From positions 216,867 through 280,866 of the forward strand of contig CAZSUC010000001.1 of NCBI GenBank assembly GCA_964610055.1: a stretch of DNA of 64,000 nucleotides, read 5' to 3'. The position numbers were made by a program, and so were the translations under genes. Below, piece after piece: positions 43,950-61,549 of this stretch (within the stretch, counting starts at the first letter, position 1; each line of letters starts with the position of its first letter). The notes beneath the pieces were generated by a model that saw nothing but the letters and a program-made list of their open reading frames with translations, was not told the origin of the DNA and searched no databases. Origin of the DNA: an uncultured Candidatus Saccharibacteria bacterium (GTDB taxonomy: Bacteria > Patescibacteriota > Andersenbacteria > UBA10190).

Positions 43950-44005
43950 CGAGTTTTGCCTCGGATATTCCTTATCCGAGGCTTTTCTTATGGTAATCTA
44001 AACAT

Positions 44006-44767: not shown

Positions 44768-44776
44768 ACAATTTCT

Positions 44777-45175
44777 ATGTTAACTAATGTTTCCGCTTTT
44801 ATTTTCAAAGACAATCAAGTCTTAATCGCTCAAAGAGCTGATAATGAAGACTTGCTATTAGGCTATTGGGAATTAGTTGGCGGAGGTGTCGAAACAAATG
44901 AAACTCCAAAGCAAGCGTGCCTTAGAGAGACAAAAGAAGAAGCAGGTATAGATATTGCAATTGGTCGACAATATGGTAATTTCCCTTTTACTCATCCAGA
45001 ACTTGGTCAAATTGATAGCCTTGCTTTTGTTTGTGTTCCCAAATCAAATTCCGCAATCACATTGAGTTTCGAACATCAAAACTATCGTTGGATTACAGCC
45101 GCAGAACTAGGGGATATTAACCCAATGACTGATCGCATGCGTTCTATGATTCTTCAGGGTTTTAATGAAGTTTAG
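44777..45175 (+). CDS. NUDIX hydrolase
   Basis: Nudix box GGGVETNETPKQACLRETKEEAGI. Confidence 0.8.
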   Translation: MLTNVSAFIFKDNQVLIAQRADNEDLLLGYWELVGGGVETNETPKQACLRETKEEAGIDIAIGRQYGNFPFTHPELGQIDSLAFVCVPKSNSAITLSFEHQNYRWITAAELGDINPMTDRMRSMILQGFNEV

Positions 45176-45473
45176 CTTGTAAAACTTCCACATTCCGAAT
45201 AAACTCTTTTTCTAAATCAATTCCATACTCATCTGCTAGCACTAACACGCTCCATAAACAATCTGCTAATTCATGTGCTAAAGCCTCATCCACATTATCA
45301 ATTTTCCTAATACCTTGCTTAGCCAGTATTAATTTCATTAAATCACCTACATCTCCTACGAATCCTTCGGCAATATTTTCCCTAGTCCAATTTTTATTGT
45401 ATGTAATTTTCTCATACTTTCTATATATCTCTCTTAGTTCCAACGCTTTTTCCTTTAATTCGTTAAATTGCAT
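45162..45473 (-). CDS. MazG-like nucleotide pyrophosphohydrolase
   Basis: EEVGDLMKL-like and ELADCLWSVLVLADEYGIDL blocks of the all-alpha MazG/NTP-PPase fold. Confidence 0.7.
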   Translation of the reverse strand: MQFNELKEKALELREIYRKYEKITYNKNWTRENIAEGFVGDVGDLMKLILAKQGIRKIDNVDEALAHELADCLWSVLVLADEYGIDLEKEFIRNVEVLQAKLH

Positions 45474-45504
45474 TATTTTATCTTAAGTAGAGTAAAGTAA
45501 TATT

Positions 45505-46008
45505 ATGCTTAACGTTAAACCTTTCCAGGAGACTTTGCACGGTGGCTATTGTGGTCCAGCAAGCCTAAAAATGGTCTTAAACTATTACGGCCGAGATAAA
45601 AGCGAAGAAGAGATAGCTGTGCAATGCAAACGCGACCCCGATCTTGGCACTACCGATATTGCTCTTAAACAAGTCGCCGAAAACTATGGATTTGAAGTAA
45701 TTATCCAAGATAAAGCCTCGTTTGATGACCTAAAGCACTGGTTAGACCGAAAAGTACCTGTAATCGTTAATTGGTTTACTCGCGGTCGTTCGAACTATTC
45801 AGACTCTGAAGTTCCTGACGGTCATTATTCTGTCGTCATCGGTTTAGACGCTAACAACATCTATCTCCAAGACCCGGAAATAGGGAATATACGCACTATC
45901 AGCCGGGATAATTTCCTAAAAGTATGGTTTGATTTCAAATCCAGCCACATCCAATCATGGGAAGATTTAATCCTCCGGCAAATCATCGCCATTTATCCTA
46001 AAGAGTAA
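45505..46008 (+). CDS. stand-alone peptidase C39-like domain protein
   Basis: HGGYCGPASLKMVLNYYG (catalytic Cys context) plus downstream His (DGHYSVVIG) and Asp (QDPE), typical of the C39/C39-like papain fold. Confidence 0.6.
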   Translation: MLNVKPFQETLHGGYCGPASLKMVLNYYGRDKSEEEIAVQCKRDPDLGTTDIALKQVAENYGFEVIIQDKASFDDLKHWLDRKVPVIVNWFTRGRSNYSDSEVPDGHYSVVIGLDANNIYLQDPEIGNIRTISRDNFLKVWFDFKSSHIQSWEDLILRQIIAIYPKE

Positions 46009-46024
46009 TAAAATTGTTCATCAT

Positions 46025-46420
46025 ATGAAAAAAGAAAGCGTTGGTATTCTGATTACAAATAAAGCCGGAGAATACCTTTTACAAATGCGAGATGGAACCC
46101 CTGGTATTTGCAACCCTTTACGCTGGAACTTTTTTGGCGGTCGACGCAATAATCTCGAAGAAATTATTTCCGGAGCTATGCGTGAGTTATCTGAAGAATT
46201 AGATATTATTGCGAATTCAGAAGAATTCAAAATTCTTGGGGACATTATTTTTCCTGACGGTGAGTTTTACACTCTTACTCAATATTTGAAACCAATAACT
46301 TGGCGCGATTTCAGTGTTAATGAAGGCGCTGGAGCAGCTTTTTTTACGAAGCAAGAGCTAGAACAAATTAACATTACCGAAAAAACCAAACTACTAATCC
46401 ATAAATTTATTATTGGATAA
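46025..46420 (+). CDS. NUDIX hydrolase
   Basis: Nudix box FGGRRNNLEEIISGAMRELSEELDI. Confidence 0.7.
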   Translation: MKKESVGILITNKAGEYLLQMRDGTPGICNPLRWNFFGGRRNNLEEIISGAMRELSEELDIIANSEEFKILGDIIFPDGEFYTLTQYLKPITWRDFSVNEGAGAAFFTKQELEQINITEKTKLLIHKFIIG

Positions 46421-46423
46421 ATA

Positions 46424-46876
46424 ATGTTAACATGCGTTTTTGAAAACGGAGACGAAGCATCACTGCGACATGCAGTCGTGCAAGGAATTGTGCTAAATCA
46501 GGATAACCAACTCATGCTTATTAAGCGGGCAGTCAACTTGATTGAAGGAAGTAAATGGGCCTTACCGGGTGGTTATGTTGAGCGCGATGAAACGCTTCCC
46601 GAAGCTCTTACACGGGAAGTTAAAGAAGAAACTGGTTGGGAAATTAAAAATATAAAACTCATTAGTATTTACGATAATCCTAATCGCCCTCGTGAAGATC
46701 GACAAAACATCGCCTTTAACTACATCTGTCTGGCTACTAAGCAAACCGGTCAACATGACCATGAAGTTACCGCAACGCACTGGTTTTCTTTAACGGATCC
46801 AGTCGTTAAGAACCTCGCTTTTGATCATTCTAATGCAGTCAATGATTTTATTAGCCAAAAAAATATTCGTGACTAA
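46424..46876 (+). CDS. NUDIX hydrolase
   Basis: Nudix box LPGGYVERDETLPEALTREVKEETGW. Confidence 0.8.
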   Translation: MLTCVFENGDEASLRHAVVQGIVLNQDNQLMLIKRAVNLIEGSKWALPGGYVERDETLPEALTREVKEETGWEIKNIKLISIYDNPNRPREDRQNIAFNYICLATKQTGQHDHEVTATHWFSLTDPVVKNLAFDHSNAVNDFISQKNIRD

Positions 46877-46981
46877 AATATGGCAATTGCACCGTTTGGC
46901 CTAATTCAGCAAGCATACCAATTAAAATTTTTAATAAGCACTCCAATAACATTGATCATTTAGTAAACGATATTATTAACT

Positions 46982-47563
46982 ATGCCAAAATCTAAAGAAA
47001 TCAAACCTTGGAAACTAATTAACTCCGAAATGGTTTTAGATGAAAAATGGTACCGTGTTCGTAAAGATACTGTCGAAGTCCGCCCAGATCGAATTATTGA
47101 CGATTACTACATCGGTCTTTTCAATGACATTGTTTTAATCCTTGCTCTTACTCCGGACAATAACGTTCCTCTGGTGCGTCAATATAAACATAGAGCCGGG
47201 GAAATCCTCTTAGAACTCCCGGCTGGTTACATGGATCCAGGCGAAGAACCGCTGCATGCCGCTCAAAGAGAATTGCAAGAAGAAACTGGGTTTACTGCTA
47301 AAGATTGGCAATATTTTGGTTGTTTCATCTCAAACTCCGCTAAATCAAAAGGGAATAATGTTCATATTTTTCTTGCGCGCAACGCTGTTCAAACTCACTC
47401 GCAAAACCTAGATCCTAACGAAGACATCGAAATTGTTACTATTCCTTTTCAAGATGCCATTAAAAAAGCTCTTAATCATGAAATCAAAGGCAGTGATAGT
47501 GTTTTGGCTCTCCTTCTAACTGAAAAACAGAAAAAATCAATTTACCGCCACGCGCAAAAATGA
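46982..47563 (+). CDS. NUDIX hydrolase (ADP-ribose pyrophosphatase-like)
   Basis: Nudix box LPAGYMDPGEEPLHAAQRELQEETGF with an N-terminal NudF-like extension. Confidence 0.8.
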   Translation: MPKSKEIKPWKLINSEMVLDEKWYRVRKDTVEVRPDRIIDDYYIGLFNDIVLILALTPDNNVPLVRQYKHRAGEILLELPAGYMDPGEEPLHAAQRELQEETGFTAKDWQYFGCFISNSAKSKGNNVHIFLARNAVQTHSQNLDPNEDIEIVTIPFQDAIKKALNHEIKGSDSVLALLLTEKQKKSIYRHAQK

Positions 47564-47907: not shown

Positions 47908-49149
47908 ATGAACGACAATTTATCACAAAAATTAACTGCAACCTCAAACAAGACCGGCGAGCCAAAACCGGTTTTTTTTGACCTCAGTTCTAATGCAGAC
48001 CAATCCAAACTCGAGGATCTGTTAGAAAAAAATCCTCATACAAAAATTGTTGATACGTATGATACGCAGTTGCTCGAATCTTTTGTTCTAGATCATCCAG
48101 CTTTACACATTAATCATCCTGAACGTGATCGTCAGTTTAAAGATTACCGCGATCAGCATTATGGTACCCAAGAAGCTTGGCAAGCCGGTAAATGGGTTTA
48201 TCTTCCTTGGAGACACATCTTGCTCCATATTCTAGACGATGCTTCGTATCAAAAAGTTCGCACCGGGCGTAACCGTAACCTTATTACTGCAGCTGAACAG
48301 GACAAGTTTTATAACAGTACTATCGGTATCGGTGGTCTGTCGGTTGGTAACAGTATCGTACTGGCTATTGTTTTAAGCGGTGGGGGAAAGCATATGAAAT
48401 TGGCTGATCCAGATACTTTGGAACTAACAAATCTTAATCGCATTCGCGGTAGCATATCCGAACTCACTGAGCCAAAAGTATATATGACTGCTCGACAAAT
48501 TTACGAGCTTGATCCTTATGCGGATCTGACTCTCTACACCGACGGGATTACTGAAGACAATATTACTGATTTCTTTACCGGTTTAGATTTGGTTATTGAT
48601 GAAATAGATAATCTAGGAATCAAAATTCGTATCCGTCAGCATGCTCAAAAAAATCGTATCCCAGTAGTGATGGCAGCTGACAATGGAGAAGGAGGCATTT
48701 TAGACGTTGAACGACATGACAAAGAAGACAATATCCCATATTTTCATGGTCGAGCTGGCCAAGACATTGAAGATCGCGTTTTAAATCAACATTTACCTCT
48801 ACCTTTAATTGGTAAGGTAATTTGTGAAGAACTTATTGGCTACGATATGACCGATGAACGAATGCAACAGTCTGTCTTGCAGATTGGCCAAGAAATTCCT
48901 ACTTGGCCTCAATTAGGAGCCGCCGCTCTCTTAAATGGAGTTGCTGTTGCTGGTACCGTTAGGCGTATTTTAAATAATCAGCCCGCCGTTAATGATAGAG
49001 CTGATTTGCGTATGAGTGCTTGGCTTGATCCTTATTACAATGATCCTGAGCAAGCCGAACAACGCCGCCGCAATACCGAAAAATTCGGTAAGGCTTACGA
49101 TCAGAATATCGAACAGTTTCTAAAAATGATGCAAAAGAAACTTAACTAG
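47908..49149 (+). CDS. ThiF/MoeB/E1-like adenylyltransferase family protein with long N-terminal extension
   Basis: Rossmann GxGxxG (IGIGGLSVGNSIVLAI), followed by a DPD...L.NLNR arginine-finger region and a DxxD-like block (LVIDEIDN). Confidence 0.6.
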   Translation: MNDNLSQKLTATSNKTGEPKPVFFDLSSNADQSKLEDLLEKNPHTKIVDTYDTQLLESFVLDHPALHINHPERDRQFKDYRDQHYGTQEAWQAGKWVYLPWRHILLHILDDASYQKVRTGRNRNLITAAEQDKFYNSTIGIGGLSVGNSIVLAIVLSGGGKHMKLADPDTLELTNLNRIRGSISELTEPKVYMTARQIYELDPYADLTLYTDGITEDNITDFFTGLDLVIDEIDNLGIKIRIRQHAQKNRIPVVMAADNGEGGILDVERHDKEDNIPYFHGRAGQDIEDRVLNQHLPLPLIGKVICEELIGYDMTDERMQQSVLQIGQEIPTWPQLGAAALLNGVAVAGTVRRILNNQPAVNDRADLRMSAWLDPYYNDPEQAEQRRRNTEKFGKAYDQNIEQFLKMMQKKLN

Positions 49150-50299
49150 CACCTAAAATTACCTCAACTTTCTCTACATCATCCGGACTTAACGCAAAAT
49201 GAGCTCGTAAATAACCCGTATCAGCACTCCCAGGCCTAAAGAAAGGAATACCAGGCGCCACCGCGATGCCTTTATCTAATAGCTCCTGCATCGCTGCCAT
49301 ATCACTGGCGCGATTATGTTTTACCATCATGTAATAAGCCCCCTGCGGCGACACTGGTTCCATGCCATATTTCTCAAAAGCAGCCATAATTCTTATTCGA
49401 TTATTTCGATATTGTCCCACTAAATCTGACACAAACCGATCTAATTGGTTGCTTTCTGTTTGCCATAAGTCTGCTAAAATCAATTGCGCTGGCGCTGGTG
49501 CACCTACGTATAAAGCCTCATGAATATGCGTCATATTAGCCCGTCGTTCAGGAGCAGTTATCGCATATCCTGTTCTCCAGCCAGCTAAGGCTAAATTCTT
49601 GGAAAAACTCCTACAGATTACTAAGTGGTTTAAATCGGAAGCTAAACTTAAAAGGGAAGTATAATCATTTTCCCAAATAAAATCTTGATAAACCTCATCC
49701 ATTACTAGCAGCACATTATTACGAACACATAAATTGTACAATTTTTCTAAATCATCCTTATCAATCACTGTGCCTGTCGGATTAGCTGGATTTCCAATTA
49801 ATAATGCCTTGAGCCCCGGGATTTTTTGGCCAATAGTTTCCCAGTTCAATTTAAATTCAGTATTGTAGGGAATGTATTCCGTAACCGCTTGAATAGCTTG
49901 AATGGCCCAATTATGAGCTGGATAAAAAGGCTCCAACAAGCCTACTTTATCGCCGGGAGCGCATACTGTTCTTAAAGCAGAAACTACTCCACCTGTTACT
50001 CCATTAGTTGCCATTACTTCCTCTAAAGTTAAGTCAGCTCTTTCTCTTTGCAAGCGATTTAATAGTGCTGCTCTATATTCCTTATATCCTGCTGGAGAAG
50101 CATAAGTATGCATTCGGCGCTCTTTAAACCTCTCATTTAATTTATCCAAGAAAATCTTAGGTGGGGCAGTATGAACTACTCCTTGCGCCATATCAATTGC
50201 TCCAGCTTCAACTGCCATGTCGGCCATTTCTCGGCCTGTTGGTAAATGCGTCCCGTTATTTTTAATCATCAAAACCTTGGCATCGATAACATTTTTCAT
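49142..50299 (-). CDS. PLP-dependent aminotransferase (class I/II, AAT fold)
   Basis: SFSKNLALAGWRTGY (PLP-lysine block), NPANPTG, and a C-terminal R for substrate carboxylate. Confidence 0.85.
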   Translation of the reverse strand: MKNVIDAKVLMIKNNGTHLPTGREMADMAVEAGAIDMAQGVVHTAPPKIFLDKLNERFKERRMHTYASPAGYKEYRAALLNRLQRERADLTLEEVMATNGVTGGVVSALRTVCAPGDKVGLLEPFYPAHNWAIQAIQAVTEYIPYNTEFKLNWETIGQKIPGLKALLIGNPANPTGTVIDKDDLEKLYNLCVRNNVLLVMDEVYQDFIWENDYTSLLSLASDLNHLVICRSFSKNLALAGWRTGYAITAPERRANMTHIHEALYVGAPAPAQLILADLWQTESNQLDRFVSDLVGQYRNNRIRIMAAFEKYGMEPVSPQGAYYMMVKHNRASDMAAMQELLDKGIAVAPGIPFFRPGSADTGYLRAHFALSPDDVEKVEVILGAS

Positions 50300-50322
50300 A
50301 AGCTAAGGATAGCTCCATTTTC

Positions 50323-50356
50323 GCCCAATAAAAAGCGGCAGGTGATACCCGCCGCA
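50323..50356 (-). terminator. rho-independent terminator closing the RiPP operon
   Basis: Minus-strand GCGGCGGGTATCACCTGCCGC hairpin followed by TTTTTATTGGG. Lies between the small membrane-protein gene and the aminotransferase start. Confidence 0.5.
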
Positions 50357-50381
50357 TAAACCACCTGGATTTCATGCTGCT

Positions 50382-50657
50382 TTAGCCGAAAAGCCAGGGG
50401 ACCAGAGACCAGAAAGCCCAATGTGCCATGTAACCGATGCCACACATCAGCAGGGTTACAACCGTGACGATCATCCAAAGAGGAGTCTGGAATGGCGCTG
50501 CAAAATCAACGGATTCACTGGGCGCACTTGTCTCTAAGTTCGCATGCGGCAACAGGCCATCCCGAGCGCGGGACTCCCACGCAATCTTGCTAGGAGTCTC
50601 ACTGTCATTCCTGTGATTTTGATCCGCACCAACATCGTAAGAACTCCCGTGCATCAC
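50382..50657 (-). CDS. small membrane protein (2 C-terminal TM helices); candidate immunity/export accessory
   Basis: 91 aa with a hydrophilic N-terminus and a C-terminal WMIVTVVTLLMCGIGYMAHWAFWSLVPWLF. It is the last gene of the operon and has higher GC than the host background. Confidence 0.4.
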   Translation of the reverse strand: MMHGSSYDVGADQNHRNDSETPSKIAWESRARDGLLPHANLETSAPSESVDFAAPFQTPLWMIVTVVTLLMCGIGYMAHWAFWSLVPWLFG

Positions 50658-50796
50658 ATAACCCTCCTAAAAAGGACAAAATCACACAACCTACTACTAA
50701 TCAAAAATTACAGTCAATAACACAAAATTACAACCATGCCGTGTCAATTGTTCTTAACACGCAGATTCAAACTTAATTAACAATAGGTTGGTAATT

Positions 50797-51471
50797 CTAA
50801 AAAATTTCCTCTGCTTTGACCTCCACAATTGCCGCCGGATTCTTAATATTCCGTTTCGCCATATACTGCCGCACCATATCATACCCCAGCGAATACCCAG
50901 TCCACTTTTTTATACCGTTCCCCCCGTAAAACCAATCATCGCGGTTAAAATCTTCAGACTTCAAGATCGGTTTTGCTTTTTTCCAAATCAGACTCAACTC
51001 CTGACTATCAAGATTATGAGCATACGGCACATCAATATCAGAATACATAAATTCCTCAAACATTGACGGCAATCCCTCGTCAACTAACGCCTCACCCAAT
51101 GTTTTTGCTACTGGCCAAGTGGCATATCGTCTAGCATGGCACATCTCATGGGCAATTGCTGATGGCATCCATTGTTTTACATTATGAATTATCCCATTTT
51201 TATGTTTTGGGTCTATAAAAATTAGAATTGTATCTGCTTCGCCGCACCGGCCTCCTACACCCTGCTCCGGAATAGTCGCAAATTTATCCGCATAAACCAA
51301 AATATTACACTCCTTAAGATTAAGCCATTTATTACAGTCAGTCACAGCCTCTCGCGCCACTTCTAAAACATTAGCCGCATCTAGCACTTCCGCATCTTGA
51401 TCATGTATCCGGTACATTAAATGGATATAAATTTTACTGCTAGTTATCTTGTATGAGAATTTTGTGAGCAT
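50797..51471 (-). CDS. putative Zn-dependent metallopeptidase (HExxH; DUF2268-like?)
   Basis: SAIAHEMCHARRY contains HEMCH with a downstream Glu (VDEGLPSMFEEF). Immediately downstream of the precursor gene in the same orientation. Confidence 0.5.
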   Translation of the reverse strand: MLTKFSYKITSSKIYIHLMYRIHDQDAEVLDAANVLEVAREAVTDCNKWLNLKECNILVYADKFATIPEQGVGGRCGEADTILIFIDPKHKNGIIHNVKQWMPSAIAHEMCHARRYATWPVAKTLGEALVDEGLPSMFEEFMYSDIDVPYAHNLDSQELSLIWKKAKPILKSEDFNRDDWFYGGNGIKKWTGYSLGYDMVRQYMAKRNIKNPAAIVEVKAEEIF

Positions 51472-51490
51472 ACCACCGTATGATCATAGG

Positions 51491-51526
51491 ATTAATAAAA
51501 GGGCCGACTGTATAGGAGCCGGCCCA
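51491..51526 (-). terminator. intra-operon partial terminator/attenuator immediately after precursor gene
   Basis: Minus-strand GGGCCGGCTCCTATACAGTCGGCCC hairpin followed by TTTTATTAAT. Sits 17 nt after the precursor stop codon. Confidence 0.45.
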
Positions 51527-51542
51527 ACGCGGAGAGGATTGG

Positions 51543-51725
51543 CTAGCGGCTGCACTTACCGCCGCCGTTTGATCCGCCACCGCTGCACTTACCGCCGCCG
51601 TTTGATCCGCCGGCACATCCGTTTCCGCTTGCTTGCATCTCGCGGGTAGAAATACCGCGAGAATAAGCGAGCCGCGTCACCTTCAGTTGAGGAGACGCTT
51701 TTTTCGCAACCGTCTCTGACGGCAC
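51543..51725 (-). CDS. RiPP precursor peptide, microcin B17-like Gly/Ser/Cys/Asn-rich core (LAP/TOMM substrate)
   Basis: 60 aa: MPSETVAKKASPQLKVTRLAYSRGISTREMQAS | GNGCAGGSNGGGKCSGGGSNGGGKCSR. GTG start with AAGGAGGT 5 nt upstream. Lies 15 nt downstream of the YcaO gene. The core has 3 Cys, 4 Ser, 3 Asn and 14 Gly in 27 residues. Confidence 0.7.
   Translation of the reverse strand: MPSETVAKKASPQLKVTRLAYSRGISTREMQASGNGCAGGSNGGGKCSGGGSNGGGKCSR
51549..51611. repeat. perfect 33-nt direct tandem repeat (x2) inside precursor core
   Basis: GCTGCACTTACCGCCGCCGTTTGATCCGCC occurs at 51549 and again at 51582 (period 33). It encodes the duplicated core module GGSNGGGKCS. Confidence 0.85.
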
Positions 51726-51740
51726 AACGAACCTCCTTTC

Positions 51741-53603
51741 CTAATCCAAAGGGTGGACAGAAAATCTTAGAGGCACATCCTTAACTTCAACGACACGAGT
51801 ATGCGGGAGCTGGTTGAACCCAAACGTCAAAGGAACAAACCAGGGACTCAGGAGCCGCACCACCCTCAATCCCTGTACCTCACCATACGCAACCGAGTAC
51901 AGCGCGTCAACACCTAATTGTCGACACACTTTGACAACGTCGGCGCTTTCAACAACCTCTTCGGAAAAGCAAGGCTTCGTTAACTCTGACTCTGAAAAAG
52001 TTGTTGAAGACCACAAAAAAGAAGCTGAAACCAAGTTTTCAGGATTGTTAAACCAGCACGCATGGTCATCTGGCGTCCTAACGTCCTGTAAGGCAATTCG
52101 CGGCTTTTCTTCCATGTGCATTGCCGGATCCAGTAACCGGCAAAACAATCCTACCTCAGCTTCTTTCCAAGCACTCAGCAGTGCTTCTTGGACAGTGTTG
52201 CGCGCAGCTGCGCCGCAAATCATCGCCGGCCAATTGTTTCTCCGCAAGACTACTAGCATCGTGGGTACGATAGTCTTGGATATATCAAGGAAATCCACCT
52301 GATATCCAAGTGACCGCACCTTATCGCATTCCGCGACGAGGTCTCGGGGAATCATGCACTCAGACAATCGTGACGGAGGCTGGCGAAAAATCCAGGTTTT
52401 CATGAACGCATCGCGTTCAATGAGCTCTAATAGCGCCGAAAACTGCGCTTTCGCAACAGACATTCCAGCAGCCATACCAGAAGAGTTCGCCCAACGGCAT
52501 CTTTGCTTGTAAGAATGCGGTTGGAAAGGGTAGTAACACAAATCAGCAAGAATCCGCACTTCCTGACCAGTTATAACACTAATGGCATTGCGCCAATAGT
52601 ATTTGCAATCTGGTTTAAAAGGGCGCAGCTCCGCATCCTCGCATTGGCTACCAGTCAAGTGATACAGGGAATCGGGGTCAATCCGATTTTTGCTTCCATG
52701 CAATGACCCATATTCAAGTCCATGAGTATTGTATTTTCCAGCCGCATGCCTCTCCAAAGCTTCTGCGGACGAAACCAAATGCGCTGTGAGCCTATCCCTG
52801 TGCGCGCCACTTGCGACTGGATTACGTCTCCCGTCCCATTGTCCTTTTTGGCGATAGCGAGACATAACTATCGCCACAGACGGAGAAAATCCCGTGGACA
52901 AATCTGTGATTACAGATTGCTGAACCACAGAGCCAAATGGACCACAATAATGCCAATTCCCAACATCAATCCAATTAACTGTGCGCTCGCGGACACTAAT
53001 CTCGCATAGGCATTCATCCTCCGCTAACAAAGAGACAATCGTACTAGCAAGCCACTTACACGTGTCATGCTCAATAAAATTTTCTCCAGGAATAACTACC
53101 TCGCCCGTGTTCCAGAAAAGAGGGCGTGCCCTATCTAGCCAAACGCCAGCAAACGCCCACTCAATCAGCCGCTTAGCCAGAAGCTTTTGCTGTCGTGGTT
53201 TAGATAGCTTGGCCAACAGGTAAAGAGGGCCAAACCGGAAGCCTAAACCATAGCATTTCCCAGTTTTATTAAAAACTGGGAAATGCTGAAAAATTGGCAA
53301 ACCCGAGCAATTCTCTGCGATGTGCCAGTCAAGTCGATCAGGAGGTTGGGTATCCAAAACCCAGACTTGCTCTTGAATCAACAATGACCATAGCGACATC
53401 ATTTTTTCTGGGGGAACATTGCTTTGTTCAGCAAAATTCCAGACAATTACTTGATCAAGCAGGCCATTCTTATAACCTGCACACGCACGTAACAAGTGCG
53501 AGACCTGAGCATCAGCAATGGAAACCTCGTTCTGTAGACTTACGAACTCGGCCCGGTCACTCAGAAAAAACAGATCATATGTAGGGTTAAACCTAACAAT
53601 CAT
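51741..53603 (-). CDS. YcaO-domain cyclodehydratase (TOMM SagD/McbD-type) with ~230 aa N-terminal extension
   Basis: YcaO signature RWANSSGMAAGMSVAKAQFSALLELIERDAF (ATP/Mg-binding S...E..ER motif) and downstream conserved blocks. The N-terminal ~230 aa has no Rossmann motif and is a possible leader-binding/E1-like docking domain. Confidence 0.85.
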   Translation of the reverse strand: MIVRFNPTYDLFFLSDRAEFVSLQNEVSIADAQVSHLLRACAGYKNGLLDQVIVWNFAEQSNVPPEKMMSLWSLLIQEQVWVLDTQPPDRLDWHIAENCSGLPIFQHFPVFNKTGKCYGLGFRFGPLYLLAKLSKPRQQKLLAKRLIEWAFAGVWLDRARPLFWNTGEVVIPGENFIEHDTCKWLASTIVSLLAEDECLCEISVRERTVNWIDVGNWHYCGPFGSVVQQSVITDLSTGFSPSVAIVMSRYRQKGQWDGRRNPVASGAHRDRLTAHLVSSAEALERHAAGKYNTHGLEYGSLHGSKNRIDPDSLYHLTGSQCEDAELRPFKPDCKYYWRNAISVITGQEVRILADLCYYPFQPHSYKQRCRWANSSGMAAGMSVAKAQFSALLELIERDAFMKTWIFRQPPSRLSECMIPRDLVAECDKVRSLGYQVDFLDISKTIVPTMLVVLRRNNWPAMICGAAARNTVQEALLSAWKEAEVGLFCRLLDPAMHMEEKPRIALQDVRTPDDHACWFNNPENLVSASFLWSSTTFSESELTKPCFSEEVVESADVVKVCRQLGVDALYSVAYGEVQGLRVVRLLSPWFVPLTFGFNQLPHTRVVEVKDVPLRFSVHPLD

Positions 53604-54630
53604 CCATAGTCTCCTCCAGGCGACCAGCTAAAACGACAGTAAGAGGCACAACGCCATCTAACAGGTTAAGAACAGCGGACAACTCACGATCAAAAAACCC
53701 ACCAACTTCTACACAACCCAAGCCACACTCAGCACAAAAAATTTGCAAATTTTGTGCTGCATGACCGGCTTCAAGAATAGTGTAGCGATAACCGCGATCA
53801 CCATACTTCCTACACACGAATGGCACATCACCACTGATCACAAAACATGCCCCGCAAGTATCTACATAAGTGTCTTTCATAAAGCAACCATGAAAGGCAG
53901 TAGTATCTTGCCATTTAGTCAGCAGATGAATGTCATGGGTGTAAGAATACACTCCGCTGTCAAGTCCAGGCGACGGTGTTGTAACAAGAACATGCAGCAT
54001 AAGCGGATAGAGAGCGCCAGCTGACGGTATCGTACGGCGTAATAAACCGCAAGACTCCCAAGCAAACGATCCTACCACCCCGCATGCAGACCAACACAAA
54101 TCCCTAACCTCCTGGCGCTTGAGAGGCGCCCCAGTAAACTGACGAGACGTGCGTCGACTACATAATAACTTCGCAAAGGGGGTCGTCGGCACCGGCAGAA
54201 AGCCTCCTACAGGCTGCCTTTTCTGCACTTCGTTGTACAAATTGTTCATCTCATCGTCAGACAGCCTCTTAAAAAGAGGCATGGGATTGTTGCCGTATGC
54301 ATGAAATGCACGCCAGCATTCCTGGGCATCTACTAACGCTCCGCTACTTTGTAACAACTCAACCAGTGACAAAATTGACGGAAGTGGGTATGAGCAAGAA
54401 AGAACCTCAATAATCTCATGTAACTCGTAGTAGCCGGAACAATAACGCAACAAATCCCGCTGAAGCTGAACGTCACATTCAACTACTATGACTTCCTCGG
54501 GAAGGTAATACCGCATAGAGGAAATACAGTTATCAACGTAACAAGTAACCCTAGGGCGCCAAGAAAGGCTCATCAGAAGTTTCTCCTTATAATTGTCAAA
54601 GAACTGTCCAAAACGACGACAATCAATCAT
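53593..54630 (-). CDS. SagB-type FMN-dependent dehydrogenase (McbC-like azoline oxidase, nitroreductase fold)
   Basis: N-terminal SagB-specific extension followed by a nitroreductase core (LLCSRRTSRQF; AGALYP; RYTILEAGHAAQNLQIFCAECGLG). Overlaps the YcaO gene by 11 bp. Confidence 0.8.
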   Translation of the reverse strand: MIDCRRFGQFFDNYKEKLLMSLSWRPRVTCYVDNCISSMRYYLPEEVIVVECDVQLQRDLLRYCSGYYELHEIIEVLSCSYPLPSILSLVELLQSSGALVDAQECWRAFHAYGNNPMPLFKRLSDDEMNNLYNEVQKRQPVGGFLPVPTTPFAKLLCSRRTSRQFTGAPLKRQEVRDLCWSACGVVGSFAWESCGLLRRTIPSAGALYPLMLHVLVTTPSPGLDSGVYSYTHDIHLLTKWQDTTAFHGCFMKDTYVDTCGACFVISGDVPFVCRKYGDRGYRYTILEAGHAAQNLQIFCAECGLGCVEVGGFFDRELSAVLNLLDGVVPLTVVLAGRLEETMDDC

Positions 54631-54825
54631 TCACTATTATTGCTCTATAAGCAAATTAAACCTGTCAATCAAAACTGACAAACAAAAAACCAATTTTTTG
54701 CCACAAGGCTATTTACATGTTCAAAACCCAGTATAAACTAATCCCCCAAAACCAGCTAAAATAGGCATGGTTTCCAGCATCGGGTTTATCGTGCGTATCC
54801 TAGCTGTTTTTATTAACCCTCGTGT

Positions 54826-55447
54826 ATGACCTATCAACATTTCACCGTCGAGGAACGAGAAACAATTCAACTCGGACTTTGGCAGAGGGAGTCGATCAGT
54901 TCCATCGCAAAACGTCTGGGACGCTCAGCCTCGTCCGTCAGTCAAGAGATTAAGAGGAATCTGTACCTCAAGCGTCGCTGGTCACCAGAACAGATTGCGG
55001 GTCGCATCAAGCGTGACCTCGGCGAGACTATTTCTCACGAAGCAATTTACTAATTCATCTACTCCTAGGTGTATCGAGAAGGCCATGGGTATGTGAAGCC
55101 AGCTCATTAAGACTTGCGGCCATACCTACGCCGACGCCGTAAGCGACGCCTTGCTCGCGGTAGCCGTTGTTGCCAGCGAGTGCCGCGACCAAAAACACCC
55201 TCACGGAACGGCGGACCGGTAAGCTCTTCATTATGAAATTGCCTGACCGAACAGCGGCGAGTACCGCCACCGCGGTGACGAGCCATCTGGAGCATCTGCC
55301 ACAGAGACTACGACGGACCCTCACCAGATGAGCTGGCGCATGTCGAAGCCGAGCTCAATGACCGGCCGCGCAAACGGCTCGGTTATTTAACCCCTAACGA
55401 AGCTATAGGGTGTTGCACTTCGAGGTTGAATCTACCGGAGACACGTT
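54826..55447 (+). pseudogene. IS30-family transposase remnant (N-terminal HTH plus C-terminal tail, DDE core deleted or scrambled)
   Basis: The 75-aa ORF MTYQHFTVEERETIQLGLWQRESISSIAKRLGRSASSVSQEIKRN...WSPEQIAGRIK...ISHEAIY matches the IS30 Tnp N-terminus. At 55330..55447 another frame reads DELAHVEAELNDRPRKRLGYLTPNEAI, the typical IS30 C-terminus. The middle ~270 bp is GC-rich with no intact frame. Confidence 0.55.
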
Positions 55448-55475
55448 TGTCTAAAAACATGTATTATGACACCAT

Positions 55476-57077
55476 ATGAATATGAAAAATATTCCGTTTC
55501 CAGTACCAACCATTCCTGTAGAAAGTAAAAATCAGGATTCAAAATATTCGTATAAATATGCTCACAAAATTTATAAAGAATATTTTAATTTTCCGATCAA
55601 AAAAGCAAGGCAGACCCTAGAAGATACTTCGCCCGCAGATTGGAATAAGAAGGGCAAGGTGCAAGCATTAAACGTATTTCAAGCCGCTGCCCATCGCGTC
55701 CCAGCATATAAAGACTTCTTAAAGAAACATAAAGTTAATCCAAGCACCATCACCTCTGTATCTGATTTCGAAAAAATTCCAGTCATTGATAAAGAATCCT
55801 ACCTAAAACATTATCCCGTAGAACAGCTATGCTGGGACGGGATTTTTACTAATGGTAATATAATTTCAGTATCCTCTGGGTCTTCTGGAAAACCATTTTT
55901 ATGGCCTCGAGAAATCGGTCTTGAATTAGAAGTAACTTATTTTTTTGAACTTATTTTAGATTCGTTCTTTCATATTTCTAGTCACAAAACTCTATTAGTG
56001 GATTGTTTTGCTATGGGGATGTATGTAGGGGGACCGTTTGTATTAAATACAACCATGCGTATATCGCAAAAAGGCTACCCCATATCAATTGTTACTCCAG
56101 GGAATGTTATGGAGGATATTCTGCGCGTGGTTAAGGAACTCGGACCTCAGTATGAACAAGTTATATTATCCGGATACCCGCCTTTTATTAAGGACATTAT
56201 TGATAAAGGCAGAAAGATTGGAATCGATTTTAATTCTTTTAAAACAATTATATTTCCAGCAGGCGAAGGTTTCTCTGAATCATGGCGCAGTGCAGTTGCA
56301 GAAAATGCCAATATTCAAGATCCTGTTAATAGCCTCTTAGGATATTATGGTACTGCTGATGCTGCGGTTATGGGAGCAGAAACTCCTTGGTCTGTATTGA
56401 TACGTAAAGCTGTATCGCGAAATATAGAAAATATTGAAAAAATATTTGGAGAATGTCGCATGCCATCAGTTCTGCAATATATTCCGACGCTACGTTATTT
56501 TGAATTAATAAACGAGGAACTAGCCTTTACAGCCGCTAACGGATGTATACCTTTAGTGCGTTACAATATAAGAGATAAAGGAGGGCTATGGAAATTTACC
56601 GATGCACATAAAAATCTCAAACAAATAGGAGTGTCATATCAGGACGAGTTAGATCAAAATTCCAAATATGGTAAACCATGGCAATTGCCATTCGTTTATG
56701 TATTTGGGCGCAGTGATCAAACTGCTATTATCTACGGCGCTAATGTTTATCCTGAACACATCAAAATGATTCTTGAAAGTAAGGAATTGGCTGGCTACTG
56801 TTCTGGGCGTTTTGTTCTTGATACAGAAGAAGATCATTCGCATAATCAACATCTTATCTTGCATTTAGAATGTCATGCTCACGTTCAACGCAATAATGAT
56901 TTGCGAGACTACTTAACAAAAACTGTTTTTAAAATGCTCAAAAATATTAACGCAGAATACGCAAATTCCGCTAAAGCTAACGGGTCAAAAGCCATTCCTA
57001 AGATTTTCTTACAAGAATACGAAGATTCTCATTATTTTGCTCGAGACAAAAAGCAGCAGTGGAAGCTTAAAAAGTAA
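55476..57077 (+). CDS. PaaK/CapK-like adenylate-forming enzyme (phenylacetate-CoA ligase / F390 synthetase family)
   Basis: P-loop-like VSSGSSGKPFLWP in the ANL superfamily position, 533 aa, and a YGTADAA-like block. Very low GC, unlike the adjacent island. Confidence 0.55.
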   Translation: MNMKNIPFPVPTIPVESKNQDSKYSYKYAHKIYKEYFNFPIKKARQTLEDTSPADWNKKGKVQALNVFQAAAHRVPAYKDFLKKHKVNPSTITSVSDFEKIPVIDKESYLKHYPVEQLCWDGIFTNGNIISVSSGSSGKPFLWPREIGLELEVTYFFELILDSFFHISSHKTLLVDCFAMGMYVGGPFVLNTTMRISQKGYPISIVTPGNVMEDILRVVKELGPQYEQVILSGYPPFIKDIIDKGRKIGIDFNSFKTIIFPAGEGFSESWRSAVAENANIQDPVNSLLGYYGTADAAVMGAETPWSVLIRKAVSRNIENIEKIFGECRMPSVLQYIPTLRYFELINEELAFTAANGCIPLVRYNIRDKGGLWKFTDAHKNLKQIGVSYQDELDQNSKYGKPWQLPFVYVFGRSDQTAIIYGANVYPEHIKMILESKELAGYCSGRFVLDTEEDHSHNQHLILHLECHAHVQRNNDLRDYLTKTVFKMLKNINAEYANSAKANGSKAIPKIFLQEYEDSHYFARDKKQQWKLKK

Positions 57078-57102
57078 GATGTTTTGTAATACGATGTAGG
57101 TA

Positions 57103-59394
57103 ATGTTTTCCCTCATTGCCTTTCTAAGCACTACGCTTATTAATTTAACTTTAGCAACGCTGGTTATTCGCCGTAACCCACGTAGTGCGACTCATCGTTT
57201 TTTTAGTGCTCTTACTTTTTCTTTTGCCATCTGGGCAACTGCTAACTACATTTCTTTTACAACTTCAAATCCAATTATTTCCTTATGGATGGTAAGACTA
57301 GTAATGGCATCCGCTATTGCCCAGTCTTATTTTTTTATGCTATTGCTGGGAACATTTCCAAAATCATCTTTATCGGTTAACAAGATATTCTTAACTTGTA
57401 TTACTGCTTTGGCTGCATTAGCTTTTGTGGTTTGCCTCTCTCCTTTGCTCATTGATTACGTGCAATTAGGAGTAAAGGCCACTCCTGTAACACACTATAG
57501 TTTTGGCATGGCTCTGTTTTTACCGACTGCCTTTGGTTGTCTTGGTACTGGAGTGATATGGATCATTCGCCGAAATCTCAAAGCTGAATCTATAGAAAAA
57601 GTTCAACAACGATATTTAATTGCTGGATTACTGATTACTTTTTCTTTGTTTGTAGGTTTAGCTTTAATTCCAACTATTGCATTCAACAATACATCGTTTA
57701 TACCCCAAGCCCCGTTATTTACAGTCCCATTTGCTATTTTAACAGCCTACGCAATATACAAGCATCGTCTTATGGATGTTCGTTTAGCTCTCGCCAGAAG
57801 CCTTTCCTTCTCTTTTCTTGTTGGTAGTTTTCTTGTTGTTTACGGTCTCATATTTATTTTTGCTGTTCCTATACTATCTGATATCTTAGGTGTTCAAGAA
57901 GGAATTATTGCTGCTGTCGGTGCTCTGTTTAGCATTCCTATCGCTCGTTGGATTAGGGGTATCTTGCGTCGTGTTACTGACCGCTTTCTTTTTCAGCAGC
58001 AAGCTAATTACAGAATAGCCCTAGTAAGTATTAGTCGTATTTTATCCGGAACTATTAACATTGAAGAAGTTACAGATACTCTTCTTAATGCTGCTTCTCA
58101 GGTTATTCGATCCCAAAAAACAATTATTTTTCTTCGCGATAAAGATGGTCAACATTACCAGCCACGCGCTGCTAGTCGCAGTACACGCTTAAATACTGTT
58201 ATTAATCTTGATCATCCTTTAATTCGTCATCTTCAACATTCAATAAGTCCAGTCGTCAAAGACGAAATATCAGTGATGCACGAACAAACAAATCAGCCTA
58301 GTCGTATTCAAGAGTTAGAATCTGTTCAAAAAGCCATGGAATGGTTAGATGCTTTCGTGCTCGTACCATTATTCGTTGATAAAGAATTAACAGGATTTAT
58401 CCTCTTAGGTGAAAAACTCACCGGAGAACCTTATTCTAACGACGACATCGAATTCTTAGCCGCCCTTGCCCCTCAGGCTGCTACCACTCTTGAAAATGCT
58501 CGCCTCTATAAAGAATCCTTGGAATTCGGCAAGAAACTGCAAGAAGAAGTTGATGCCGCCACCAAAGAACTCAAATTTGCTAATGAACAGCTCAAACAGA
58601 TTGATCAGGCTAAAAGCGAGTTCCTAAGTATCGCCAGTCATCAGCTATACACGCCTCTAACCGCTATCCGTGGCTACCTTTCCATGTTGTTAGAAGGGGA
58701 CTTTGGTAAAATCTCCAAAGAACAACAGCCTATTATCGACATTCTGATGCAAAGTGCAATGCGCCTCATTGAGCTTATTAAAAGCCTGTTGGATGTTTCG
58801 CGCATTGAAAGCGGTCGGTTAGAGCTCAAGTTAACCTCGGTTGATTTTGTGGAAATGGCGCGTAATATGGTTCAAAATCTCATGCCTAATGCGCAGGCCA
58901 AGAAATTAAACCTATCTTTCCATGAGCCGTCCAAAAAAGTTACTCATGTTGTCGCTGATTCCGAGCGCATCCGTCAGGTCGTCTTAAACTTCATCGATAA
59001 TGCCATTAAATACACTGATAAAGGTCAAGTTGATGTCTATGTTAAGCCATCAGGTGACAACATTGTTTTTGAAGTAACTGATACTGGAAAAGGTATTACT
59101 GAAGAAGACATTCGCAAACTGTTCAACAAATTTAGTCGGGTTGGTGGGTCAGATAAATACCATACTGAAGGAACTGGTCTTGGTCTCTACGTCGCTAAAC
59201 AAATCGTTAACGAGCATCACGGCGATATTGAGGTTTCCAGTCCCGGTACAGGCAAGGGGAGCACTTTCACTATTCGTCTTCCTGCCGAAGGGTCACCACA
59301 AAGCCTAAAATTGGATCCTAATGCTGAATTCACCATTAAAAAAGCTGATCCGCATCCAGAACCAGTTGAAAACTCGCCATCCCCTCAAACCTAA
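57103..59394 (+). CDS. sensor histidine kinase with N-terminal 7TM region and GAF domain
   Basis: About 7 TM helices, a GAF-like middle region, HisKA H-box (SIASHQLYTPLTAIRGYLSML) and HATPase_c (DNAIKYT; DTGKGI; GTGLGLYVAKQIV). No adjacent response regulator. Confidence 0.85.
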   Translation: MFSLIAFLSTTLINLTLATLVIRRNPRSATHRFFSALTFSFAIWATANYISFTTSNPIISLWMVRLVMASAIAQSYFFMLLLGTFPKSSLSVNKIFLTCITALAALAFVVCLSPLLIDYVQLGVKATPVTHYSFGMALFLPTAFGCLGTGVIWIIRRNLKAESIEKVQQRYLIAGLLITFSLFVGLALIPTIAFNNTSFIPQAPLFTVPFAILTAYAIYKHRLMDVRLALARSLSFSFLVGSFLVVYGLIFIFAVPILSDILGVQEGIIAAVGALFSIPIARWIRGILRRVTDRFLFQQQANYRIALVSISRILSGTINIEEVTDTLLNAASQVIRSQKTIIFLRDKDGQHYQPRAASRSTRLNTVINLDHPLIRHLQHSISPVVKDEISVMHEQTNQPSRIQELESVQKAMEWLDAFVLVPLFVDKELTGFILLGEKLTGEPYSNDDIEFLAALAPQAATTLENARLYKESLEFGKKLQEEVDAATKELKFANEQLKQIDQAKSEFLSIASHQLYTPLTAIRGYLSMLLEGDFGKISKEQQPIIDILMQSAMRLIELIKSLLDVSRIESGRLELKLTSVDFVEMARNMVQNLMPNAQAKKLNLSFHEPSKKVTHVVADSERIRQVVLNFIDNAIKYTDKGQVDVYVKPSGDNIVFEVTDTGKGITEEDIRKLFNKFSRVGGSDKYHTEGTGLGLYVAKQIVNEHHGDIEVSSPGTGKGSTFTIRLPAEGSPQSLKLDPNAEFTIKKADPHPEPVENSPSPQT

Positions 59395-59421: not shown

Positions 59422-60477
59422 TTGCCAAGCTTTATGTTCTTAAAAAAAATCCCATTTCAAAATATCCAAATTGAGCCCGGAGGAGTGCTCTTAACAGCTG
59501 ATTCTACAAGCCAACTAGAGCAAGAGGGAATTTTTAATCCTGCTGTAGCGGGCGACATTCTGCTGTACCGCGCCGCTGGGCCAAATAATTTTTCTCGTAT
59601 TTTAGCCGCTCAACTCTCATATAATTCTTTACGAAACGATTGTAATGCCACGCGTCTTAATCAAGTCATTTTAAAACCAGAAACATCCTATGAGCTCATG
59701 TCAGATGGATCAGGTGGTGTAGAAGATCCTCGTATTACTCAGTTAGCAGACGGAAACAAAGTCATGTTTTATACTGCCTTTGGACTACAACCTCACACAC
59801 ATATTCAAGCTCCTAGTATCGCTGTTGCTGTCTCAAACAACGGTCTTAGTTGGCAACGCCTTGGTCCTGTCACTTTTAGTCTTCTCAAGTGGCATGGTCA
59901 ATCATTTGATTTTAACAAAGTTCCCAATAAAGACGCTGTTCTTTTTAGTCGCAAAATTAACGGACGCTATGCCATGTATCATCGTCCTATGTTTAGTCAA
60001 GCTGAAGCCGATAAATTACAAGTTCCATGTCGTGGTATCTGGTATGCCGAAGCTGACTCTCTGACTGGACCATGGGGAAATCATGCTTTGGTAACTGGTC
60101 CAAACAATAGCTGGGAAACTAACGGTGTCGGTGCTGGTGTACCGCCGATTTTGATTAAAAACTCATGGCTTCACATATATCATGGTTTTATTTATGACGG
60201 TCATCACAAGCATTACAATGCCGGAGTCTTCATGACTCCAAAAAATCATCCCCAAAAAATCAGTTGGCGAAAAGCCGAGCCAATTTTAGAACCAATTGTA
60301 TTTAATGAAAATTACAACGTTGATAAACATATTGTTTTTTCTACTGCTGCTTGGCGGTCTCCTGAGGGTCATATTCTAATTTTTTGGGGCAGAGAAGATC
60401 GTATGATTATGTGGGGATACCTAAAGATAGCTACTAAACAACCAAACTTTCTTGCCAAACTCGAGCTGCCTGCTTAA
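59422..60477 (+). CDS. GH130/DUF377-like glycosidase or glycoside phosphorylase (5-bladed beta-propeller)
   Basis: IFNPAV...LLYRA, EDPRITQLADGNKVMFYTAF and later Asp/Glu-containing blocks resemble the GH130 family. Assignment is from memory of family motifs. Confidence 0.5.
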   Translation: MPSFMFLKKIPFQNIQIEPGGVLLTADSTSQLEQEGIFNPAVAGDILLYRAAGPNNFSRILAAQLSYNSLRNDCNATRLNQVILKPETSYELMSDGSGGVEDPRITQLADGNKVMFYTAFGLQPHTHIQAPSIAVAVSNNGLSWQRLGPVTFSLLKWHGQSFDFNKVPNKDAVLFSRKINGRYAMYHRPMFSQAEADKLQVPCRGIWYAEADSLTGPWGNHALVTGPNNSWETNGVGAGVPPILIKNSWLHIYHGFIYDGHHKHYNAGVFMTPKNHPQKISWRKAEPILEPIVFNENYNVDKHIVFSTAAWRSPEGHILIFWGREDRMIMWGYLKIATKQPNFLAKLELPA

Positions 60478-61549
60478 CCGATGCCGGTGCTAATTGAAAA
60501 AATATTTCAGTTAATAAATACGCTAAAGTAGATTCTGCGCCACAATTCAAATTCACACCGTCCGCATTTAAACCATCGTGACAAGCACCGTTATTTTCTC
60601 TTAATGCCAAGCCTAAAGAATTACGTCCCCAAAACCACAAATAAGGAGCACTAATAATTTCAGGAGATAAAACATTGGCTACAATTTCATCGTATGCTAA
60701 TAACAATTCAAACATTAAAGCTGCGTCCAGAGGCTGTTGGTCGTACATAGATAATTTTTGCCCTCTCGCATACCACCCTTTATTTCCAACAGGCTGAAAA
60801 AATCGTGGCTTTATGGTCGTTTTAATTAAAAAAGGTAATGTTGCTAGTAAGATTTCTTGGCTTTCCTGATCGTTTGGAAAAGCCTGATTGTAGGCCAACA
60901 CAGCGTGAGGAAATAAAGCGTTTGCATATGTCATTCTTTGCTCAAACCATGGCCAGTCCTTTTGCTTATTTTTCTTAAAATGACCCAGTAAAATTTTGTA
61001 TAAAGACTGCATTACTTCTTGGCCATCTTGATGATTCCATTCATGTAAAGCTAAAATTGTTTCCGCAGCACTTCTTGGATGTTCCAATTTTCCCAACCGA
61101 GGTAATAGCTTCCTCATCATCATCTGCGCCTCATTTTTTATCTCCAAATTATCTTCATATTTAATTACTGTGCCCAAAGCTCGTGCTGCGTGTGAATGTG
61201 TTTCTTCTGTTCCGATATCATCAAGCCATTTTCCTTTTACATCTCGAAAATTTTTAAATGATCCATCCTGATTCTGTGCTTCTTTTAAAAATTGCCAGTA
61301 CAATTTTTTATTTTGTTTAAACTCCTCGTCTTCTTTATTCCATTGCCTTAATGCACATAATCTGATTGCACGACTATTGTCATCCGTGCAATATCCTTCT
61401 GATAAATTTGGTTCAAATCCATGCGCGTGCTGATACAACCCATATGGGCCGGTCAATTTCTTCATATAACTCCATGAAACAGCTTGCATAAATGTTGACT
61501 TAATAGTATTATTTCTCCCGTCTGTCAAGGTAAGTAATTCCGTATACAT
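60434..61549 (-). CDS. hypothetical protein, possibly (alpha/alpha)6-toroid glycoside hydrolase-like
   Basis: 371 aa ORF with Trp-rich, helix-rich composition, convergent with the GH130-like gene (44 bp 3' overlap). The function guess is weak. Confidence 0.35.
   Translation of the reverse strand: MYTELLTLTDGRNNTIKSTFMQAVSWSYMKKLTGPYGLYQHAHGFEPNLSEGYCTDDNSRAIRLCALRQWNKEDEEFKQNKKLYWQFLKEAQNQDGSFKNFRDVKGKWLDDIGTEETHSHAARALGTVIKYEDNLEIKNEAQMMMRKLLPRLGKLEHPRSAAETILALHEWNHQDGQEVMQSLYKILLGHFKKNKQKDWPWFEQRMTYANALFPHAVLAYNQAFPNDQESQEILLATLPFLIKTTIKPRFFQPVGNKGWYARGQKLSMYDQQPLDAALMFELLLAYDEIVANVLSPEIISAPYLWFWGRNSLGLALRENNGACHDGLNADGVNLNCGAESTLAYLLTEIFFQLAPASVKQAARVWQESLVV

Follow-up and report, generated by a model that had tools for sequence, protein, structure and literature searches.

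The minus strand of a 64,000-nt stretch of contig CAZSUC010000001.1 from an uncultured Candidatus Saccharibacteria bacterium (hereafter the window; all coordinates are positions in it) carries a compact group of genes for a SagB/McbC-type flavin mononucleotide (FMN) dehydrogenase, a YcaO cyclodehydratase, a 60-aa precursor peptide, and a predicted zinc metallopeptidase of the DUF2268 family. We consider it likely, with a probability of roughly two in three, that these genes form a working cluster for a ribosomally made peptide with post-translational modifications (RiPP) of the linear azole-containing peptide (LAP) type and that its synthetase is a non-canonical pair of two enzymes. The analysis itself shows the identities of the genes, their conserved order, the coding status of the precursor, the catalytic motifs of the enzymes, the fold of a RiPP recognition element (RRE) modeled for the dehydrogenase, and a conserved hairpin behind the precursor gene.

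The dehydrogenase gene (53593..54573; 326 aa) and the YcaO gene (51741..53603; 620 aa) overlap by 11 nt between the stop of the former and the start of the latter. Behind the YcaO stop come GGAAAGGAGG and the GTG start of the precursor open reading frame (ORF; 51543..51725), which has an AGGAGG ribosome binding site (RBS) 6 nt upstream. The peptidase gene (50797..51471; 224 aa) lies next. An earlier sequence-only reading had listed these ORFs together with a fifth one of 91 aa (50382..50657, with an AGGAGGG RBS), and all five were found on the minus strand as described. The same reading extended the dehydrogenase to 54630, the limit of the longest ORF, but the ATG at 54573 is most likely the true start given its AAGGAGA RBS and the agreement of gene callers and 23 homologues. 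A promoter had also been proposed upstream of 54630, but we found no sigma-70-like site when scanning the minus strand upstream of either 54573 or 54630. The other end of the transcription unit appears to be closed by a terminator-like hairpin with T-run at 50335..50355 on the minus strand (9 pairs, 7 of them G-C, then TTTTTATT), in agreement with the terminator suggested for 50323..50356.

The arrangement of the cluster is conserved in a set of nine loci composed of the window and its relatives L003, L004, L005, L006, L086, L087, L088, and L008, of which L086 and L087 are partial because their contigs end early. Within the reach of their contigs, L003/L007, L004, L005, L006, L088, and the more distant L008, a Saccharibacteria metagenome-assembled genome (MAG), all share the order of dehydrogenase, YcaO, small ORF, and DUF2268 gene. 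Two independent samples (Logan assemblies) also yielded the identical cluster, its genes in the same order. The 91-aa ORF contains one hydrophobic segment toward its C-terminus (Kyte-Doolittle, residues ~58-80) and has no match in Pfam, NCBIfam, or PADLOC; the other loci yielded no homologue, so that it is not a conserved part of the cluster. The operon thus consists of four conserved genes and one lineage-specific ORF, in contrast to the five-gene operon originally envisaged, and the small membrane protein proposed at its end keeps its hydrophobic segment but not its membership of the conserved cluster. The 91-aa product possibly serves in immunity or export, or is unrelated to the cluster.

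Comparative sequence analysis identifies the 60-aa ORF as a genuine gene on which purifying selection acts throughout the family. Orthologous small ORFs occupy the same position in all eight other loci, and pairwise dN/dS ratios of 0.09-0.26 (with synonymous sites near saturation) indicate a translated ORF that is subject to selection, which together with the conserved leader and the strong RBS bears out its earlier designation as a precursor gene. The window peptide has a leader with an LKVTRLAY motif and the core SGNGCAGGSNGGGKCSGGGSNGGGKCSR, in which C37, S41, C47, S48, S52, C58, and S59 are candidates for modification. Across the family, the leader follows the pattern (L/F)-x-V-x-R-x-x-Y-(P/S) with a later Arg, and the core contains the repeat GGS(N/H)GGGK(S/C) once or twice and has (S/N/H)R at its end, with Ser and Cys swapping among relatives at the position after the Lys. 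The precursor of L008 keeps the leader (FKVTRKPY) in front of an unrelated, Cys-rich core, CGNQTCDACRGGCKSTS. The peptide is rare, with only 7 called homologues among 5.8 billion proteins and about 12 precursors in the sub-family as a whole against this same total, and Pfam and NCBIfam scans assign it to no family. In the window, TRF detects a tandem repeat at 51549..51611 with a period of 33 nt, 1.9 copies, and 100% matches that encodes two GGSNGGGKCS repeats. The core repeats of other loci are not identical at the DNA level (and L006 has a single repeat), so this perfect duplication confined to the window genome points to a recent duplication or gene conversion. As a separate observation, the window precursor lacks a leader of the classical double-glycine type.

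A second hairpin with U-run that had been overlooked in the sequence-only reading lies in the gap between the precursor and peptidase genes (51501..51525, minus strand; dG -17.1 kcal/mol, z -4.1) and resembles an intrinsic terminator or attenuator. Such a structure follows the precursor gene in 9/9 loci (dG -12.8 to -20.9 kcal/mol, z -4.0 to -5.9), and the stem of L008 is unrelated in sequence to those of the other loci. These values come from folding the nine hairpins one by one, as a joint RNAalifold analysis was uninformative due to misalignment by MAFFT.

The YcaO protein matches PF02624 with 126 bits over profile positions 2-322 of 325, and both of its ExxER motifs (residues 281-285 and 393-397) are invariant in 8 YcaO homologues. 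Among the NCBIfam models, TIGR03604 for the SagD-type cyclodehydratases of thiazole/oxazole-modified microcins (TOMMs) scores highest (123.3 bits), ahead of the thioamide-type model TIGR03266 (52.9 bits) and the E. coli-type model TIGR00702 (40.2 bits). We therefore rejected an E. coli-type YcaO, whose model scores lowest, and also a thioamide-type YcaO, as the TOMM model scores higher and no TfuA was found among ORFs of at least 120 aa between 38202 and 63928; placement in either of these clades would have spoken against the original annotation. The protein can be divided into an RRE-like N-terminus (residues 1-85), an orphan conserved middle region (~95-265), and the YcaO domain proper (266-620). 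Seven full-length relatives share 39-50% identity, after which identity drops to ~28% and is confined to the YcaO domain; next in line are SagB-YcaO fusions together with proteins named "TOMM precursor leader peptide-binding protein". The YcaO domain aligns to the fused SagB-YcaO proteins with a probability of 100%, and a profile search of the PDB likewise matched this domain alone. Scanning JGI metagenome contigs by means of the YcaO alignment yielded no relatives. At its C-terminus the protein reads FSVHPLD, compared to a family consensus of FPVHPFD and FPHPF in fused relatives from the candidate phyla radiation (CPR), so that one to two prolines are retained.

The middle region of the YcaO protein is strongly conserved within the family, including the motifs GFRFG, EWAFSGKWLDRARPLFW, and SRYRQ. 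Profile and single-sequence searches gave no match to it in Pfam or the PDB, and outside the family it has no relative among 1.84 billion representative proteins. In the structure model of the full protein, usable fold matches were obtained for the first ~85 residues only, and this RRE-like domain probably aids leader recognition as a second element of its kind in the cluster. We also considered that the YcaO N-terminus could be a degenerate copy of the dehydrogenase. This idea is unproven because hhalign finds only a weak colinear match to the SagB family (YcaO 1-166 with SagB 4-168, E 9e-4, probability 23%) and because nothing but the YcaO domain aligns to the fused SagB-YcaO proteins.

The dehydrogenase matches PF00881 (Nitroreductase) with 55 bits, its best NCBIfam model is TIGR03605 (SagB) with 75.2 bits, and the azoline oxidases BmdC, McbC, and cyanobactin oxidase are among its best sequence matches in the PDB. 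Its K256-Y257 pair is invariant in 24 homologues and aligns with K201-Y202 of McbC, the catalytic pair of that enzyme (PMC6395948), so that the catalytic residues are kept as the initial assignment requires. The structure model is good (pLDDT 85, where pLDDT denotes the predicted local distance difference test) and McbC is among its top structural matches. The N-terminus (residues ~1-85) is modeled as a beta3-alpha3 winged helix that matches solved RREs of the PqqD-like type; by this predicted fold, it is an N-terminal RRE fused to the dehydrogenase, and the Pfam PqqD family matched 3/15 dehydrogenase N-termini, weakly. The peptidase is identified by PF10026 (DUF2268; 92 bits) with an HEMCH motif at residues 108-112 and is a candidate leader peptidase. 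A DUF2268 gene lies beside YcaO in the close family, and likewise in about 20 CPR loci whose SagB and YcaO are fused; the protein has no solved relative by sequence, and we found no literature on DUF2268 together with YcaO or in this role. The YcaO, SagB-type, and peptidase annotations made previously are thus all borne out by profile matches.

The cluster belongs with the catalogued LAP clusters of CPR bacteria, i.e., it is of a kind already known, and the sub-family in the window is rare. Sharrar et al. 2020 described a LAP cluster of YcaO, nitroreductase, and peptidase in a Microgenomates genome and 110 LAP clusters in another 93 CPR genomes, with a nitroreductase adjacent in 89 cases (PMC7298704), so the earlier expectation that no such system should occur in this setting does not hold. 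These clusters share with ours the enzyme set and layout, a small Ser/Cys-containing precursor beside YcaO, and their occurrence in uncultured bacteria with small genomes, and the closest named relatives of our cluster are from Candidatus Saccharibacteria and other CPR MAGs. In about 20 loci that we fetched, a fused SagB-YcaO gene (~730-750 aa) adjoins a DUF2268 gene; they are from Saccharibacteria, Paceibacterota, Moraniibacteriota, Kerfeldbacteria, Magasanikiibacteriota, Uhrbacteria, Nomurabacteria, and a few proteobacteria. Eight of them have a Ser/Cys-rich ORF of 40-55 aa directly 3' of YcaO whose leader shows a similar alternating hydrophobic motif. Unlike these relatives, in which dehydrogenase and YcaO are mostly fused, the window encodes them separately, its YcaO has an RRE-like N-terminus of its own and the orphan domain of 170 aa, and only a tiny clade has the GGSNGGGK(S/C) repeat core. 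Two observations on other precursors stand apart from this comparison. A Paceibacterota locus with a fused SagB-YcaO (L014, 11202-11631) has two tandem precursors with identical leaders, MAQPKEDKPQSQTWQITRTARTL, and different Cys-rich cores, and Sorangium loci (L051, 8464-8811; L072, 8408-8698; L085, 8556-8840) encode precursors of ~95-115 aa with long CGGC / CGGH repeat cores that lie 5' of YcaO and a separate SagB and are unrelated to the window family.

Compared to characterized LAP synthetases, the cluster departs in having no detectable E1-like component, an RRE on the dehydrogenase and probably also on YcaO, an orphan YcaO domain, and a DUF2268 peptidase. The missing E1-like C component, in place of which leader recognition would sit on the dehydrogenase and probably also on YcaO, had escaped the sequence-only reading, which called the cluster microcin-B17-like. 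This likeness holds for the composition of the core and the McbC-like dehydrogenase only, so that the cluster is not a member of the microcin B17 family: there is no McbB-type E1-like zinc scaffold, YcaO has no detectable sequence match to McbD in single or profile searches of the PDB, neither an McbEFG exporter nor a pentapeptide-repeat immunity gene lies within about 8 kb, and the RRE resides on McbB in microcin B17 biosynthesis (PMC6395948) but on the dehydrogenase here. RRE domains fused to an azoline oxidase are also known from the cyanobactin oxidases ThcOx/CyaGox, but ThcOx has two RRE copies and works beside a separate E1-YcaO heterocyclase of the PatD/LynD type, whereas the window protein has one RRE and no E1 domain is detected anywhere in the system. 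The bottromycin YcaOs offer a precedent for activity without a recognizable E1-like partner (PMC8442711), though in a pathway that lacks a SagB-type dehydrogenase step of this kind. Finally, genes for a YcaO, a flavoprotein, and a hydrolase also occur together in the streptamidine cluster (PMC8442711), but that cluster differs by a cryptic E1-like protein, AmiB, a dehydrogenase with HY in place of KY, and an amidine product.

What we infer beyond these findings is the azole chemistry and the residues that it modifies, where the leader is cut and what the peptidase does, and how the product is exported and what it targets. The precursor would be translated from its strong RBS, and the 3' hairpin probably terminates or attenuates transcription and would thus yield more precursor than peptidase message. 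The beta-strand-like leader motif (L/F)-x-V-x-R-x-x-Y may then dock on the RRE of the dehydrogenase, and probably also on the RRE-like domain of YcaO. Using ATP, YcaO would cyclodehydrate Ser and Cys residues of the core into azolines, which the FMN dehydrogenase would oxidize to oxazoles and thiazoles via its Lys-Tyr pair. The DUF2268 zinc peptidase would cut off the leader near a conserved QAS-G junction, and the mature, cationic, Gly-rich azole peptide would leave the cell by some route. In a bolder version that we propose only tentatively and would not bet on, the split pair is a self-sufficient azole synthetase without E1 scaffold that has RREs on both enzymes and uses the orphan, near-invariant 170-aa domain (GFRFG ... 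EWAFSGKWLDRARPLFW) instead of an E1 domain to activate the YcaO active site, and its product is a microcin-B17-like, Gly-rich poly-azole that a small-genome and possibly host-dependent bacterium directs against its host or competitors.

Several findings weigh against a working LAP cluster, and some of them favor its main rival, a different YcaO chemistry that would form an amidine ring (as in streptamidine and klebsazolicin) or leave azolines un-oxidized, with the flavoprotein serving as a structural or leader-binding component. Most characterized azoline-forming YcaOs need an E1-like partner, and an E1-like C protein or C-D fusion defines the canonical TOMM cyclodehydratases (Cox et al. 2015, PMC4603692). 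No such protein or domain (TIGR03603/TIGR03882) was found in the cluster by hidden Markov model, PDB profile, or fold, with the limit that the AlphaFold model of the full YcaO built from 8 homologues is poor (pLDDT 42). The dehydrogenase score is below the curated cutoff of TIGR03605 (78.4 bits), there is no strictly invariant Ser/Cys position in the core across all members, and neither an exporter nor an immunity gene was found near the cluster, where about 8 kb on either side contain neither ABC transporters nor pentapeptide-repeat proteins, as the sequence-only reading had also concluded. The rival chemistry in particular gains from the YcaO score falling short of the curated TIGR03604 cutoff (219.25 bits), from a VHPLD tail that does not amount to the full proline-rich PxPxP, and from a Gly-dominated core in which Cys residues are few and variable (the L004 core has 0 Cys). 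The trio of YcaO, flavin dehydrogenase, and hydrolase in streptamidine biosynthesis yields an amidine instead of azoles and involves no oxidation (PMC8442711). However, the streptamidine dehydrogenase with its HY in place of KY has ~10% identity to McbC, whereas here KY is invariant and McbC a top structural match; furthermore, the swap of Ser and Cys after the Lys suits cyclizable residues, and the lack of TfuA within about 8 kb counts against thioamidation. It therefore seems unlikely that the cluster uses another YcaO chemistry.

Also unlikely is the idea that the cluster is larger than five genes and that its missing C-type YcaO partner is encoded next to it. A ThiF/E1-like protein (47908-49149, plus strand), which scores 306 bits with the Rv1355c family model over that model's N-terminal half, a class I/II aminotransferase (49142-50299, minus strand), and a PaaK-like adenylating enzyme (55476-57077, plus strand) flank the cluster in the window and, in a different arrangement, in L004 (2102-6726), and the latter two might tailor the product. 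A PaaK-like gene lies 3' of the peptidase in L003, there are fragments in L008, and in L028 (10382-13739) an operon of ThiF, PaaK-like, and nitroreductase genes is found 7 kb from a fused SagB-YcaO. However, the fetched flanks of L003/L007, L005, and L006 contain no ThiF or aminotransferase gene (inspected over about 9 kb on the upstream and 3 kb on the downstream side for L007 and about 8 kb downstream for L005 and L006), the ThiF-like protein matches no TOMM C or F model, and PaaK-like and histidine kinase genes form a conserved pair of their own. The GC content at third codon positions (GC3) of the three genes is flank-like (0.29-0.33, compared to 0.40-0.58 for the cluster), and between the cluster and the aminotransferase, on the downstream side, lies a terminator. 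Based on the other flanks, this composition, and the terminator, we regard the three genes as neighbors of uncertain relevance, and the ThiF-like protein as missing partner is a possible but poorly supported candidate. Less probable still is that the cluster is a silent or decaying relic of horizontal acquisition without any product in this genome. A decayed IS30 remnant does adjoin it, its composition looks foreign, no exporter or immunity gene was found nearby, and no consensus promoter was found upstream, but all four core ORFs are intact, keep their catalytic residues and RBSs, and overlap or follow one another closely, the same cluster was recovered from two independent samples, and purifying selection acts on the precursor throughout the family. 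The intact genes and the purifying selection make a relic unlikely, and a functional LAP cluster is our preferred reading.

If the two enzymes indeed work without an E1-like partner, they would represent a minimal azole synthetase and provide a function for the orphan domain, and a Gly-rich poly-azole, if truly made, would be a candidate antibiotic targeting gyrase or ribosomes. If the cluster instead works like other LAP systems, it would be one more member of a catalogued class. CPR LAP clusters are known from genome mining only (PMC7298704). In the searched literature we found no characterized natural product from CPR/Patescibacteria bacteria, no characterized product of CPR LAP clusters including the sub-type in the window, and nothing on Saccharibacteria azole peptides or on RRE-nitroreductase-YcaO fusions. 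The locus is small, complete, and well delimited, with four genes, an unambiguous precursor of 60 aa, and relatives that present different cores behind the same leader. Being so compact and having a clear precursor, it is suited to expression in another host or to cell-free reconstitution.

At its upstream edge the cluster borders on a decayed IS30-family transposase gene (54826..55450, plus strand) in a region that had been counted toward the operon up to 55450 but lies outside of it. It consists of a helix-turn-helix (HTH) N-terminus of 75 aa and the C-terminal tail ELNDRPRKRLGYLTPNEA, and the catalytic DDE core is lost; both ends are in one frame (frame-1 translation) with stop codons between them. 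The remnant matches PF13936 (HTH_38) with 54 bits and NF033563 (IS30) at positions 40-78, and a blastn search against plasmids gave no match. The cluster genes have a GC content of 0.41-0.60 and GC3 of 0.40-0.58, compared to GC3 of 0.29-0.36 for flanking and housekeeping genes, with a GC3 of 0.58 for the 91-aa ORF and GC of 0.50-0.57 for the IS30 remnant. This foreign composition and the adjoining IS30 remnant are consistent with horizontal acquisition. In most relatives the GC content of SagB and YcaO is likewise ~0.44-0.48, even where the flanks are near 0.39-0.40 (L006, L008), and this steadiness across differing flanks suggests horizontal spread.

The rest of the window encodes housekeeping functions, including a ClpB-type chaperone, polynucleotide phosphorylase (PNPase), RecG, class I aminoacyl-tRNA synthetases, a ComM-like protein, dihydroorotate dehydrogenase (DHODH), and tRNAs, and the cluster proteins have no match to a defense system in PADLOC. 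The nearest transporter is a major facilitator superfamily (MFS) gene at 42717-43949. It opens a plus-strand stretch (42717-47563) that comprises this MFS transporter (MFS_1/MFS_3), an unassigned ORF of 253 aa, a Peptidase_C39-like protein of 167 aa, and four small NUDIX genes, and it is curious to see a stand-alone C39 peptidase of the bacteriocin type 5.5 kb from the precursor. ORFs of 193-669 aa without a Pfam family at E <= 1e-4 are located at 14463-16472 (plus strand), 44006-44767 (plus strand), 41625-42206 (minus strand), and 60434-61549 (minus strand). A PaaK-like gene followed by a gene for a GAF-containing histidine kinase is present both in the window (55476-59394, plus strand) and in L004 (1-3667; HisKA_7TM annotation), and histidine kinase genes are also found near SagB-YcaO genes in several CPR loci (L009, L037, L071). 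The ThiF, aminotransferase, and PaaK-like genes that recur near the cluster, with the L028 operon of ThiF, PaaK-like, and nitroreductase genes, may point to a separate, uncharacterized module of an E1-like protein and a nitroreductase.

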